A model generated the notes under the pieces. It was given only the letters and a program-made list of their open reading frames with translations. It did no database searches and was not told where the DNA came from. A DNA stretch of 64,000 nucleotides. It comes from an uncultured Candidatus Saccharibacteria bacterium. GTDB taxonomy: Bacteria; Patescibacteriota; Saccharimonadia; Saccharimonadales; Saccharimonadaceae. The stretch covers positions 108,205-172,204 of the forward strand of contig CAUQDN010000001.1 in the NCBI GenBank assembly GCA_963517285.1, given 5' to 3'. The position numbers and the translations under genes are program-made. This document shows, piece by piece, positions 52,136-56,894 of the stretch (the first letter of the stretch is position 1; every line of letters begins with the position of its first letter).

Positions 52136-52162
52136 TTAGCACTCCCTTGACGAGAGTGCTAA
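52136..52162. promoter_or_regulatory. CIRCE operator (HrcA site) overlapping the clpP promoter
   Basis: Exact TTAGCACTC-N9-GAGTGCTAA; TTGACG within the spacer, TACAAT at 52171-52176. Confidence 0.93.
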
Positions 52163-52200: not shown

Positions 52201-52797
52201 ATGAGTAATCCTAAAAACTATTTGGTTCCGACAGTTATTGAAAAGTCGCATGACGGTGAACGTGCATTTGATATTTATTCACGTCTATTAAAAGATCGCA
52301 TTATTTTCTTAGGTGAAGAGGTGAATGAGCACACCGCTAATATTGTGATTGCGCAGTTGCTTTACCTTGCGTATGAAGACCCAAAGAAAGATATTAAGCT
52401 ATATATCAACAGCCCGGGCGGTAGTGTTTATGATGGGCTTGGCATTTACGACACTATTCAATTTATTCAACCCGACGTACAAACAATCGGCATTGGACTA
52501 CAGGCAAGTATGGGGGCATTCCTGCTCTCAAGCGGCACAAAAGGAAAGCGCTTCGCACTACCAAACAGCCGTATTATGATTCACCAGCCATCAAGCGGTA
52601 CGCAAGGTAAGATTAGTGACCAAGAAATTACGCTGCGTGAAGGCCTGTTCCTTAAGCAAAAGCTGAATGAAATTCTTGCTAAAAACACCGGACAGAAGCT
52701 GAGTAAAATTGAAAAAGACGCTGACCGCGATTTCTGGATGAGTGCTAAAGAAGCCAAAGACTATGGCTTGATCGATGAAATCATTGAAAAATCGTAA
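52201..52797 (+). CDS. clpP: ATP-dependent Clp protease proteolytic subunit
   Basis: [33 protein letters not shown]. Confidence 0.97.
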
Positions 52798-52811
52798 AAA
52801 AGTTGTATAGT
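52784..52811 (+). promoter_or_regulatory. Sigma70-type promoter for the high-GC cassette
   Basis: TTGAAA (52784-52789), 16-nt spacer, TATAGT (52806-52811); the -35 lies inside the clpP 3' end. Confidence 0.6.
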
Positions 52812-52861
52812 TTAACAAGGTCGTCTTGACCCTAGTAGCATCATTCATGCAAGGGGGAATC

Positions 52862-53188
52862 ATGCAGTACGGCGGATTTGTTTGGGCGTTTGTCATCCTC
52901 TCTGTGATGTTGTTCCTGGCCGCGAACTTCAGCTTCGCGAACAAGGACGAGGTCGATCACGGCCTCGTGCCGTCACGTCGGAACGAGTACTGGGCGCTGT
53001 TCTTCTTCCTGATGGCGCTGAGTGTGCCTCTCATGGTGATCGAGCTCTACACGGGCGTCTCCATCCTGCAGTACCTGACGTGGTGGTCCACTCTGACGTG
53101 GATCTCGGGCGTATCGCTGCTCTTCTGGATGAACCGCCTGGCTATCACCTTCGTGGTGAAGGCGAGCGACAGCTTCGTTCACGAGTAG
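52862..53188 (+). CDS. Small 3-TM membrane protein with strongly atypical high-GC3 codon usage
   Basis: AAGGGGGAATC-ATG SD; 94 of 108 codons end in G/C (hand count); three hydrophobic segments. Confidence 0.8.
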   Translation: MQYGGFVWAFVILSVMLFLAANFSFANKDEVDHGLVPSRRNEYWALFFFLMALSVPLMVIELYTGVSILQYLTWWSTLTWISGVSLLFWMNRLAITFVVKASDSFVHE

Positions 53189-53252
53189 GTGACCTTCTGC
53201 GTGTGACAGAATAAGACGGGGTGGAATTGATTTTCCGAACCGTCATCACACA

Positions 53253-53303
53253 GCTTTCATTACCTGAGCGGGTAATCTGATGAGTCCAAAAGGACGAAAA
53301 GGC
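53253..53303 (+). ncRNA. Hammerhead ribozyme, type III
   Basis: GCUUUC^ AUUACC-UGAGCG-GGUAAU CUGAUGA GUCC-AAAA-GGAC GAAA AGGC: complete core, stems I, II, III; predicted cleavage after C53258 (UUC triplet). Confidence 0.92.
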
Positions 53304-53334
53304 GAAAATAGTTGAAAAACACCTATAATATCTC

Positions 53335-53363
53335 TTGATTTATTGGGATAAAAGTCGCATAAT
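53335..53363 (+). promoter_or_regulatory. Putative rpoB promoter
   Basis: TTGATT-17 nt-CATAAT. Confidence 0.55.
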
Positions 53364-53531
53364 GGCTACTAAGAAGTAGTGTAGCCCTGGTTATCTATGC
53401 CGTTAAATTGGTGGGATATATCGTTGAAGAGGATGTGGCAGTCCCACTTCAACCCAGAGGTTAAGGGAATCTTCGGCGCCAAAGAAACCCCCAATATCAA
53501 ACCCCATAATTAACTGCGAGGTCCATTATTT

Positions 53532-56500
53532 ATGGCAAGTACTAAAAGTACGAACACTAAGCGTGTGTTTTTCACTAGTGACGACACAGCGCTTTCACTA
53601 CCAAACTTAATTCAACATCAACGCGATAGCTGGAAAGAATTTGTCGAGACTGGTCTCGGTGAAATCTTTGCAGAACTCAATCCAATCGATGACTACACCG
53701 GCCAAAAGCTGGCGCTTCGTTTTGGTAAGTACGCGTTTCAGGAGCCAAAAGTTTCAGAAGTTTTCGCAAAAGAAAACAATGTGACTTTTGATGCTCCGCT
53801 TCATGCTATCGTTGAGCTTACCAACAAGGTAACCGGCGAAGTAAAAGAGCAGGAAATCTACCTTGGTGACTACCCATGGATGACCGACCGCGGTACATTC
53901 ATCATTAACGGTACTGAGCGTGTGGTTGTTTCTCAACTTATCCGTTCTGCTGGTGTATTCTTCACCGCCGACCGTGCAGCAAGTCGTAGCTACTACGGTG
54001 CGAAGCTTATTCCGGGCCGTGGCGCATGGCTCGAGTTTGAGACTGCTTCAAACGGTGCTATCTACGTTAAAATCGACCGTCGTCGTAAACTGCCTGTAAC
54101 GACACTTTTCCGCGCACTCGGTTACAACAAGACCTCAGAAATTAAAGACCTCTTTGCTGACATCGACACCGGTGAAGTAAAGTATCTCGACGCAACTCTT
54201 GAAAAAGACCCAGCTCGTGGCACTAATGAAGCTCTTATTGAAGTCTATCGCCGTCTCCGTCCAGGTGACCTCGCAACCGTTGATAACGCGCGTTCGATGA
54301 TCGAGCGTATGTTCTTCGACTTCAAGCGCTTCGACTACAGCCGTGTTGGCCGTTACAAGCTTAACCAACGTCTTGGTCTTGAAGTAGCTAACACTACTGA
54401 AAACCGCGTATTCCAAGTTTCTGACCTTATTGCTATCGTTCGCGAAGTGATCCGTCTTAACAACACTCAAGAAGAACCAGACGACATCGACGCACTTTCA
54501 AACCGTCGCGTCAAGCTCGTTGGTGAACTTGTAGCTCGTCAGTTCCGCGTTGGTATGCTCCGTATGCAACGTAACGCTATGGACCGTATGAGCATGAGCG
54601 ACCTTGAAACTGTGAGCCCATCTCAACTCATTAACGCTCGCCCAGTAGTTGCTGCAGTTCGTGAATTCTTCGCAAGCTCACAACTTTCACAACTTATGGA
54701 TGAGACTAACCCAATGGCAGAACTTGCTCACAAGCGTCGCCTTTCATCAATGGGTCCTGGTGGTCTTTCTCGTGAACGCGCCGGCTTCGACGTGCGTGAC
54801 GCCCACCCAACTCATTACGGTCGTCTTTGTGCCGTAGAAACTCCAGAAGGTGCGAACATTGGTCTTGTGCTTAACCTTGCGTCATATGCTCGTATTAACG
54901 AGTACGGATTCATCGAGACTCCATACCTCAAGGTTGAAAACGGTAAGGTGACTGACGAAGTTATCTACCTCGATGCTTCACAAGAAGCTCTCGAAGTGAT
55001 TGCTGACGCCGGCGTTGAACTTAATGAAGACGGTACTTTCAAAGAAGAGCGTGTATCTGCTCGTAACGGTCTGCTCCCAGAGCAAGTTGACGTTGCTGAA
55101 GTTACCCTCATGGACGCAGCCCACAAGCAAATCCTTGGTGCAACTGCCGCCCTCGTGCCATTCGTAGAGAAGAACCGTGTTGACCGTTCATTGATGGCCG
55201 CAAGCATGCAGAAGCAAGCTGTGCCTCTTCTTCAGCCTCAATCTCCAACTGTTGGTACTGGTATTGAAGAGGAAATCGCTCGTAACACCAGCCAGCTCGT
55301 CGTTGCTGAAGGTGACGGTGAGGTTATTCGCGCCGACGGTAATGCAGTTGAAGTGAAGTACAAAGAAGGTGTGAAGACCTACGAACCAGTTCACTTTGTT
55401 AAGTCAAACGATGACCGTTCAATCAACCAAAAAGTTTGTGTTGTTCGTGGTCAAAAGGTTAAGGCTGGCGACATTCTTATTGAAGGTGCTTCAGTTGCTG
55501 ACGGTGAAATCGCCCTAGGTAAGGACCTTCTCGTAGCTTTCATGCCATGGAACGGGTACAACATGGATGACGCGATCGTGCTTTCACGCAAACTCGTTGA
55601 AGACGACACACTTACAAGCGTAAACATCAAGGACTACACAGTTGAAGTTCGTGAAACTAAGCTTGGTCCAGAAATCGTCACTCGTGACATCCCGAACGTT
55701 TCAGAAGAGTCACTTCGTCACCTCGACGAAAATGGTATCGTTCAACTTGGTTCAGAAGTTAAGGCTGGCGACGTGCTCGTTGGTAAGATTACTCCAAAGG
55801 GTGAGCAAGAGCTCAGCTCTGAGGAACGTCTGCTTCGTGCAATCTTCGGTGAAAAGGCTAAGGATGTTCGTGACACCTCACAACGTATGAACAATGCTGG
55901 TGGTGGTAAGGTAGTTGGCGTTAAGATCTTTAGCCGTGAAAACGGTCACGAACTTAAGGCTGGTGTCCTTATGCAAATTCAAATCTTCGTTGCTCAATTC
56001 CGTAAGATCTCAGTAGGTGACAAGCTTGCTGGTCGTCACGGTAACAAGGGTGTTGTGGCTCGTATTCTCCCTGCAGAAGACATGCCATTCCTCGAAGACG
56101 GTACTCCAGTTGACGTGGTGCTTAACCCACTCGGTGTGCCAAGCCGTATGAACATTGGTCAGCTCTTTGAGACTCACCTTGGTATGGCAGCTCGCGCACT
56201 TGGTTACAAGGTTGCGACCCCTCCATTTAACGGTATTCCAGACGCAGTGATCTCTGACGAGCTTGAAAAAGCTGGCTTTGCTCGCGATGGTAAGAGTCAA
56301 CTCTTCGATGGCCGTACTGGAGAACCATTTGAAGAACGAACTACTGTTGGTGTGATGCACATGCTTAAGCTTCACCACATGGTTTCTGACAAGATTCACG
56401 CCCGTTCAACTGGTCCTTACACTATGGTGACCCAACAGCCACTCGGTGGTAAGGCACAAAACGGTGGTCAGCGCTTCGGTGAGATGGAGGTGTGGGCACT

Positions 56501-56894
56501 TGAAGCATATGGCGCTGCTGCAACACTTCAAGAAATGCTTACTATTAAGTCTGACGACGTGTACGGTCGTGCTAAAGCGTACGAATCAATCATTAAGGAC
56601 GAACCAATTGTCGGTCCAAAACTTCCTGAGTCATTCAATGTCCTCGTAAAGGAACTTCAAGGTCTCGGTCTTCGTGTTGACCTAATGGACGAATCAGAAG
56701 ATGCGATTGTCGACGCTGAACATGTCATTGGTAGTGTTATCAACGGCCAGCCAGTCGCTGCGTCTGAGGTAGACCTTGGTGATGAAGTAGAAACAATTCT
56801 CGATGAAGCCGATGCTGAAATGGACGATCTTGATAAAGACGGTCTAAGTATCCAAGATATCGATGAAGTAGAAGAAATTAAGGAGGAGGCGTAA
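53532..56894 (+). CDS. rpoB: RNA polymerase beta subunit
   Basis: FIINGTERVVVSQL, GDKLAGRHGNKG, GGQRFGEMEVWALE. Confidence 0.99.
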   Translation: MASTKSTNTKRVFFTSDDTALSLPNLIQHQRDSWKEFVETGLGEIFAELNPIDDYTGQKLALRFGKYAFQEPKVSEVFAKENNVTFDAPLHAIVELTNKVTGEVKEQEIYLGDYPWMTDRGTFIINGTERVVVSQLIRSAGVFFTADRAASRSYYGAKLIPGRGAWLEFETASNGAIYVKIDRRRKLPVTTLFRALGYNKTSEIKDLFADIDTGEVKYLDATLEKDPARGTNEALIEVYRRLRPGDLATVDNARSMIERMFFDFKRFDYSRVGRYKLNQRLGLEVANTTENRVFQVSDLIAIVREVIRLNNTQEEPDDIDALSNRRVKLVGELVARQFRVGMLRMQRNAMDRMSMSDLETVSPSQLINARPVVAAVREFFASSQLSQLMDETNPMAELAHKRRLSSMGPGGLSRERAGFDVRDAHPTHYGRLCAVETPEGANIGLVLNLASYARINEYGFIETPYLKVENGKVTDEVIYLDASQEALEVIADAGVELNEDGTFKEERVSARNGLLPEQVDVAEVTLMDAAHKQILGATAALVPFVEKNRVDRSLMAASMQKQAVPLLQPQSPTVGTGIEEEIARNTSQLVVAEGDGEVIRADGNAVEVKYKEGVKTYEPVHFVKSNDDRSINQKVCVVRGQKVKAGDILIEGASVADGEIALGKDLLVAFMPWNGYNMDDAIVLSRKLVEDDTLTSVNIKDYTVEVRETKLGPEIVTRDIPNVSEESLRHLDENGIVQLGSEVKAGDVLVGKITPKGEQELSSEERLLRAIFGEKAKDVRDTSQRMNNAGGGKVVGVKIFSRENGHELKAGVLMQIQIFVAQFRKISVGDKLAGRHGNKGVVARILPAEDMPFLEDGTPVDVVLNPLGVPSRMNIGQLFETHLGMAARALGYKVATPPFNGIPDAVISDELEKAGFARDGKSQLFDGRTGEPFEERTTVGVMHMLKLHHMVSDKIHARSTGPYTMVTQQPLGGKAQNGGQRFGEMEVWALEAYGAAATLQEMLTIKSDDVYGRAKAYESIIKDEPIVGPKLPESFNVLVKELQGLGLRVDLMDESEDAIVDAEHVIGSVINGQPVAASEVDLGDEVETILDEADAEMDDLDKDGLSIQDIDEVEEIKEEA

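Follow-up and report, generated by a model that had tools for sequence, protein, structure and literature searches.

Why should one short gene in a parasitic Saccharibacterium end most of its codons in G or C when the DNA on either side does not? The gene in question, an ORF at 52862-53188 on the forward strand of the 64,000-nucleotide stretch analysed here (the window), has G+C fractions of 0.51, 0.36 and 0.87 at the first, second and third codon positions. A preliminary description had confined this bias to third positions within the ORF boundaries, and 30-nt windows bear this out, showing a drop at the ORF ends. Even at a GC3s of 0.54, the 99th percentile among the 603 genes shared with a congener (G024), the probability of at least 83 G/C-ending codons in 97 is 4e-11. 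As had been pointed out, five of the 14 A/T-ending codons (positions 5, 6, 7, 10, 14, 32, 38, 39, 54, 56, 77, 84, 94 and 106) fall within the first 14 codons (hypergeometric p 0.018). The ORF had also been called an isolated island. This holds for the window only, where the next highest of the 53 genes reaches 0.46, because 36 ORFs genome-wide reach a GC3s of at least 0.68. The flanks, previously regarded simply as AT-rich, are not mere filler: a promoter, a Shine-Dalgarno (SD) sequence, a 3' hairpin and a predicted hammerhead ribozyme are present there (Table 1).

Table 1. Features of the high-GC3 unit and of its borders. Positions are those of the window; the names clpP and rpoB are presumed from the two sequences.
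Feature	Position	Strand	Basis
clpP, native codon usage, left border of variable slot	52201..52797	+	ORF list; conserved in relatives
Sigma70-type promoter TTGAAA, 16 nt, TATAGT (10/12)	52784..52811	+	Consensus match only
5' strand of predicted 10-bp end-to-end helix (partner 53187-53196)	52817..52826	+	Folding
Strong SD, AAGGGGG	52851..52857	+	Pairing at -9.7 kcal/mol with the 16S tail of this genome
Orphan ORF, 108 aa, three predicted helices, GC3s 0.856 over 97 synonymous codons, actinobacteria-like codons	52862..53188	+	
3' strand of predicted end-to-end helix, overlapping the stop codon	53187..53196	+	
Long interrupted 3' hairpin	53199..53254	+	Region z -2.0
Type III hammerhead ribozyme (predicted)	53251..53305	+	Rfam RF00008 and covariation
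rpoB leader promoter, present too in genomes with an empty slot	53335..53363	+	
rpoB, native codon usage, right border of slot	53532..56894	+	

Transcription of the unit is predicted to start at ~52817-52818. The end-to-end helix ranks above 20 of 20 swapped controls, 7 bp of it occur in both the MFE and the centroid folds, and the long hairpin overlaps at its foot with the 5' strand of stem III in the hammerhead. Contamination was rejected as a source of the unit: the flanks are native, congeners have the same slot, and the 3' element is covered in three other metagenome runs (the lack of cover for the ORF in four metagenome runs carries no weight either way). A diversity-generating retroelement target is likewise not supported, given that A and T are both depleted at fourfold sites and no repeat occurs within 52700-53600. 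Around the unit, the same interval held only chance-level pairs of flanking repeats, and the ORF list of the window contains no integrase near the ORF. Beyond the unit itself, an inverted repeat, TTAGCACTC...GAGTGCTAA, lies before clpP at 52138-52162 and resembles a CIRCE/HrcA operator. Across the order the rpoB leader (53364-53531) is conserved: its start is invariant and its hairpins vary, and it has no Rfam match.

The slot between clpP and rpoB is variable. Among 24 congeners it holds no ORF in 7, unrelated small ORFs in 10 and other genes in 7; the ten small ORFs have, as judged by eye, a similar promoter-SD-hairpin layout, with GC3s of about 0.5-0.77. The occurrence of unrelated genes in 17 of the 24 would fit repeated capture, in which a naturally competent parasite takes genes from a GC-rich host, or from that host's mobile DNA, into promoter-hairpin-hammerhead slots, inherits their codons along with them and makes the products itself. 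A metagenome contig (run X4; window 52793-53196) may be an empty slot of this kind, as its clpP end seems to run on, through a TATAAT promoter, into the hairpin-hammerhead with the ORF absent; this is weak, resting on 26 letters on the short side. For this single orphan ORF, recent capture is possible. Long 3' hairpins were also seen in clpP-rpoB slots L001-L004, L006, L009, L014, L015 and L020, the internal loops of several having a similar motif, and L003, L004, L006 and window positions 53209-53216 have the stretch AGARUAAG in common. The slot hairpins with the shared motif may form a structured RNA family.

The three membrane segments attributed to the product are supported by hydropathy (residues 1-19, 44-62 and 81-99) and by a single-sequence AlphaFold model with helices at 4-31, 39-64 and 68-107 (pLDDT 83, pTM 0.45). 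The 108-aa protein has no homolog among 1.84 billion representatives, a point that also stands against capture; nor did we find an orthologue among 39 congeners, a close homolog in a GC-rich donor, a Pfam family below E 0.11, a PHROG family, or anything at E 0.001 with Foldseek against PDB and BFVD. The best atlas score was 0.88, which is not significant. One weak match in the 39 congeners (E 0.008) was rejected, being a native-codon membrane protein. A holin-, pore- or receptor-like function had been suggested. Holins are small, with 1-4 membrane helices, which is true of this protein, and an atlas score of 0.84 to a cluster with 31% Phage_holin_2 provides a lead only. Pfam, PHROG and Foldseek gave no link to any holin family, by sequence or by fold, and no endolysin or prophage lysis cassette adjoins the ORF, whose neighbours are clpP and rpoB. 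We regard a holin or receptor function as unsupported.

The 36 high-GC3 ORFs of this 0.91 Mb genome (G000) were collected with our own gene caller as ORFs of at least 60 codons with a GC3s of at least 0.68, so that membership depends on the very property being measured; one likely spurious ORF was dropped, leaving 35 class genes. Contig C3, which has a 16S-like sequence unlike that on C1/C2 and is probably a contaminant, was left out of the class statistics. Because of this definition, and because kin are not independent, the p-values given for the class are overstated. Compared with 486 core genes, the class has a GC1 of 0.60 against 0.585, a GC2 of 0.44 against 0.39 and a GC3s of 0.825 against 0.43: the bias is mostly synonymous, with GC2 and Arg/Pro slightly raised. 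Class genes also stop with TGA more often (21/35 against 37/486), have stronger SDs (p 1.6e-5) and fold more strongly at their 3' ends (-41 against -27 kcal/mol, p 8e-10). Their mean 5'-3' pairing is not significant (p 0.14), whereas the excess of top-ranked cases (7/35) is. Most (28/35) are solo units, and they lie one by one between core genes, dispersed over both large contigs. Solo status alone is without effect on GC3, the maximum among 95 solo core genes being 0.55.

Local GC-biased mutation or repair, acting on fast-evolving units without codon selection, would account for two properties of the class. The first 30 nt past the stop are GC-rich too (0.62), and the proteins diverge very fast, with pN about equal to pS at saturation. 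It would not account for leaders that remain at 0.41 GC, for solo core genes that stay at or below 0.55, or for a GC3 that is unequal across codon boxes (Gly 0.60, Leu 0.90; chi2 p 3e-26). Nor does it explain the 5' ramp (0.71 against 0.855 in 30 ATG-start genes, although core genes ramp too) or the depletion of both A and T, which is unlike adenine-specific retro-mutagenesis. We consider this explanation very improbable indeed.

The products of the class are largely unfamiliar. Only 2 of the 36 ORFs have a G024 homolog; the 34 that lack one would be expected from repeated capture. G024 has 14 class ORFs of its own. No family was found for 23 of 26 class proteins scanned against Pfam (the matches being Clp_N, PgsA-like and a weak Gam-like one), or for 25 of 29 scanned against PHROG, the latter speaking against repeated capture. 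Where parts of other genomes were scanned, we found 7 class outliers in G003 and 3 in G515; they were sparse in G191 and G211, and none turned up in the 200 kb scanned for G074 and the 140 kb scanned for G237, both of which nonetheless carry a VirB4-like gene. The PgsA-like class gene has matches in 7 of 150 order genomes, mostly other native-codon paralogs, with L194 at 0.85, and 151 genomes yielded no homolog of a G003 lipoprotein. A 712-aa class surface protein (GC3s 0.98) with a sortase-like tail has named relatives mainly in Micrococcales (39-52% identity), and descends from, or shares ancestry with, Micrococcales proteins. These actinobacterial relatives favour capture and, as they fit plain transfer, count against the export of messages; together with the tail they hint at the host group. 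Elsewhere in G000, L181 (C1:442822-443848) contains two tandem stand-alone Clp_N-type proteins of high GC3, which could be decoys for ClpC in an actinobacterial host. Two large secreted-type proteins with GC3s of 0.94 and 0.98 lie at C1:271890-276503 (the second gene in L174); the second of the two is the one with the Micrococcales relatives and the sortase-like tail.

Two origins had been proposed for the codon bias: selection on translation of the frame, or a very recent gene-only acquisition, for which GC3 should decay toward the genome average in relatives. Since the ORF has no orthologue, the decay test was applied to class members. In one slot (L343, L347, L350 and L351; neighbours seen on both sides in three genomes and on one side in L350), proteins only 15-35% identical have GC3s of 0.75, 0.88, 0.91 and 0.63, and promoter, leader, hairpin and hammerhead are conserved. 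L335 and L336, at 63% identity, stand at 0.90 and 0.94. There are exceptions such as L003, at 0.48 against 0.74 in L004; otherwise the class homologs do not decay.

A second case is provided by ThyX, which adjoins dcd-tmk in G000 and G024 and has its named nearest relatives in Saccharibacteria or Patescibacteria (best phage 36%). Among 21 loci, two of which (L251, L255) were not parsed, one clade (100/99) contains solo copies with a long hairpin and GC3s of 0.90, 0.69 and 0.64, against 0.38-0.50 in their neighbours; in the same clade coupling to dcd goes with 0.44, and a short hairpin with 0.45 against 0.34. In five further operonic copies GC3 is native or close to it, and the exceptions L257 and L261 are solo, with their own leader, at native GC3. 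Two high-GC3 copies have a fourfold-site identity of 0.44, against 0.32 for random sequences, and are thus near saturation. It follows that a lineage-specific gene switches codon style with transcript architecture. The solo thyX copies at L250, L253, L254, L257, L258, L261 and L211 have in common a hairpin in the 5' leader that starts with a GGUGGG-like motif; it is possibly a conserved regulatory or export element.

From these comparisons, the high GC3 of the class appears to be maintained rather than decaying. Selection on translation is supported at the level of the class by the synonymous skew, the codon-box differences, the 5' ramp and the persistence in diverged homologs; very recent acquisition is not supported for the class. 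Repeated capture also has to contend with the amino-acid make-up, which is native-like (Ala 8.7% and Gly 5.9%, against 12-14% and 9-13% in two actinobacterial references), and overall we judge it rather unlikely.

Class codons are nearest to those of Streptomyces (distance 0.56) and Arthrobacter (0.92), against 2.18 for the genome's own core, and an actinobacterial reference is the best fit for 29 of the 31 genes compared (of the four omitted, three are large surface-type proteins). The references hold 15-34 genes each. The hosts known for Saccharibacteria belong to the Actinobacteria. Core genes avoid the codons CCC, TCC and CGG, all of which the class uses; run on G000 at default settings, ARAGORN calls no tRNA cognate to any of the three. 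Relaxed settings give a Pro(GGG) candidate in G000, and G024 has Ser(GGA), which makes the tRNA-gap argument a soft one. In genomes where TGA encodes Gly, ORFs read by the host should stop with TGA; we found no such genome among 15 genomes, 8 suspect hammerhead loci or the further genomes listed.

The preference for codons whose tRNAs are not called by default could also mean that parasite ribosomes read the class only once host tRNAs enter, in which case host-type codons would work as a switch that responds to contact. The 16S tail of the parasite itself is also a match for the SD, and the parasite does take up host RNA, although the imported RNA is reportedly degraded for nucleotides (10.64898/2026.06.21.733656, in the part of that work consulted). 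Such attachment-gated translation would leave unexplained both why only class mRNAs have armoured ends and why lipobox proteins occur where neither Lgt nor LspA could be detected in the genome. We think it improbable.

In the unit studied here, the armoured end includes the hammerhead predicted at 53251-53305. It matches Rfam RF00008 over its full length (E 3.2e-4; 31.3 bits, below the gathering score of 48.5), with CUGAUGA at 53277, GAAA, and UUC ending at 53258; stems I and II are closed and stem III is open. The U16.1-A15.1 pair is present in 40 of 41 homologs. Across these 41, stems I and III covary, with 95.6% of cells paired and 177 double changes against 48 shuffled; stem II was fixed by the search pattern for this test and varies with pairing in model-found matches. 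A model built from the 41 copies gives the element 66.7 bits and has matches in 24 of 40 genus genomes. Judging from core and covariation, the element appears to be a new member of a known ribozyme class. The predicted cut, after C53258 (UUC), would leave an mRNA with a 2',3'-cyclic phosphate end. RtcB was not found in the genome, and home-made RNA circles are therefore unsupported.

The exact 22-base core pattern occurs at no fewer than 129 GTDB loci. Among the 80 hammerhead titles listed, 60 are from Patescibacteria, 8 from unnamed bacteria and 12 from other phyla; phage records gave no match. Where flank sufficed, a same-strand ORF ends 25-330 nt upstream in 74 of 77 sites, and its GC3 exceeds that of the neighbours in 59 of these 74 and is not raised in 15. 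For the model-found loci, upstream GC3 is greater than that of downstream genes in 19 of the 23 scorable among 30, with some frames wrongly picked. The 5'-3' helix ranks above all 25 controls in 18 of 110 units, often covering the SD, and has compensating changes in L351. A second hammerhead with an identical core lies in G000 at C1:381485-382408 (L178, L333), behind two tandem high-GC3 ORFs (0.91 and 0.80), in a unit with a 9-bp 5'-3' pairing. At L027, L029 and L344, small ThiF-like and ubiquitin-like genes of raised GC3 lie directly upstream of hammerheads. The literature searched, mostly without subscription papers, yielded no description of the class or of hammerheads in Patescibacteria.

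A separate line of evidence concerns products that carry a lipobox. Lgt was found in none of 40 genus genomes and LspA in none of 5, in searches for which 10 of 14 controls were positive. Clean lipobox class proteins have a GC3 of 0.79 in G024, 0.74 and 0.67 in G003, 0.85 in G186 (with a hammerhead) and 0.52 against 0.28 in G191; those seen in G024 and G003 are GC3-rich. Three further lipobox proteins directly precede hammerheads (L047, L064 and L099) in genomes of unstated completeness where no Lgt was found. The argument involves about nine proteins found by regular expression, which also gave several native-codon matches resembling ordinary membrane helices. It is limited to Lgt-lacking lineages, because 144 of 201 Patescibacteria genomes (a tally that includes the unpublished G335) have Lgt. 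The genome does encode three sortase-domain proteins and a CTP_transf_1 match, so payloads of that kind could work at home. In a hammerhead-bearing array, L068:1287-1600 encodes a lipoprotein-type signal ending in LTSC at low GC3, which suggests a unit tuned to an AT-rich host.

Taken together, host-like codons and a strongly folded RNA tail make these transcripts likely messages for translation inside the host cell. Expression on the host side by whatever route seems to us somewhat more probable than its opposite. For the specific route, we favour, tentatively and at slightly less than an even chance, export of class transcripts and their translation by the actinobacterial host, that is, mRNA effectors. 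The parasite's polymerase would transcribe the unit; the ribozyme cut, the 3' hairpin and the 5'-3' pairing would then give a compact RNA resisting 3' exonucleases. Cyclic-phosphate ends and hairpins are known to resist such enzymes. The RNA would cross the parasite-host junction, perhaps via a T4SS-like conduit, and host ribosomes would translate it. The VirB4-like ATPase encoded in the genome counts in favour of this reading. The three-helix product may insert in the host membrane, a site that a secreted protein could hardly reach, and its role there, at a guess, would be to loosen or remodel the membrane at the attachment site.

Delivery of DNA would explain the codons, SDs and lipoboxes equally well. 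Parasite DNA would enter the host, and the host polymerase would transcribe the units from their consensus promoters, as with T-DNA; near-consensus TTGAC..TATAAT promoters should suit the actinobacterial primary sigma too, and a VirB4-like ATPase is present. The promoters, however, resemble native ones, the units lie scattered rather than together, and no repeated border was found around the unit studied here. We regard this route as quite improbable.

RNA transfer into Patescibacteria has been reported. Katayama et al. (2026; 10.64898/2026.06.21.733656) describe, in the part of their report consulted, host-penetrating tubes and host RNA uptake, a proposed pathway including PNPase that degrades imported RNA for nucleotides, and parasite codon usage complementary to that of GC-rich hosts. 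By that account, a gene set with host codons would be ill-suited to the parasite's own translation. In the same part, RNA flow is reported only from host to parasite, and ribozymes go unmentioned in the main text.

In its general form, the export of messages would mean that each Patescibacteria genome keeps fast-turnover single-gene transcripts, recoded for the host and protected at their ends, from which the host makes membrane proteins, lipoproteins and metabolic enzymes; we put this broader statement, too, just below an even chance. If true, it would constitute a bacterium-to-bacterium mRNA effector system, and the codon usage of the class would indicate which host an uncultured Patescibacterium has. 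This bears on how Patescibacteria live off their hosts and on the roles of their many orphan genes. The class can be computed from host-type codons, an own promoter and an armoured 3' end, which names candidates, and host-side translation is directly testable in existing co-cultures. The widespread bacterial hammerhead gains a candidate job. Were the class translated in the parasite after all, it would still have to be explained why a lineage-specific gene such as thyX keeps a foreign codon usage.

Phage early or host-takeover genes are small orphans with a strong promoter and SD. The class resembles them in this, and its payloads include ThyX, Clp_N, Gam-like and SPFH proteins; unlike phage genes, it sits between core genes of a cellular genome, with no prophage context and mostly without PHROG families. 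Type IV effectors are parasite-encoded proteins, and T-DNA genes have host-type expression signals within a bordered block. With both systems the class would share products that the parasite encodes, that evolve fast and that do their work in the host. Type IV-secreted protein effectors, however, do not need host codons, and in place of the bordered block of Agrobacterium T-DNA there are scattered units with RNA-level end structures. Cross-kingdom mRNA transfer, between fungi or parasitic plants and plants, is alike in that one organism's mRNA is translated in another; in the literature searched, which covers subscription papers poorly, we found no bacterium-to-bacterium case.

At the RNA level, the closest likeness is to RF00008 and prophage hammerheads: the full core, the three stems and the covariation are shared, and the position would cut out gene-length mRNAs of inconstant identity. 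Prophage hammerheads lie beside single genes that vary (Perreault et al., 2011, PMC3088659, in the part consulted), which also fits repeated capture. Here, by contrast, the hammerheads are chromosomal and enriched in Patescibacteria, and they occur one at a time, closing solo units at the 3' end, and go together with host-type codons. What the present analysis would add is a codon style that appears maintained, host-like and linked to products that the parasite probably could not mature. The host-RNA uptake of Patescibacteria (10.64898/2026.06.21.733656), as far as the part consulted describes it, resembles the system proposed here in its RNA-passing junction and in parasite codons unlike those of the GC-rich host. 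There RNA flows from host to parasite as food, whereas here a subset of the parasite's genes has the host's codons, which implies a flow of RNA in the reverse direction.
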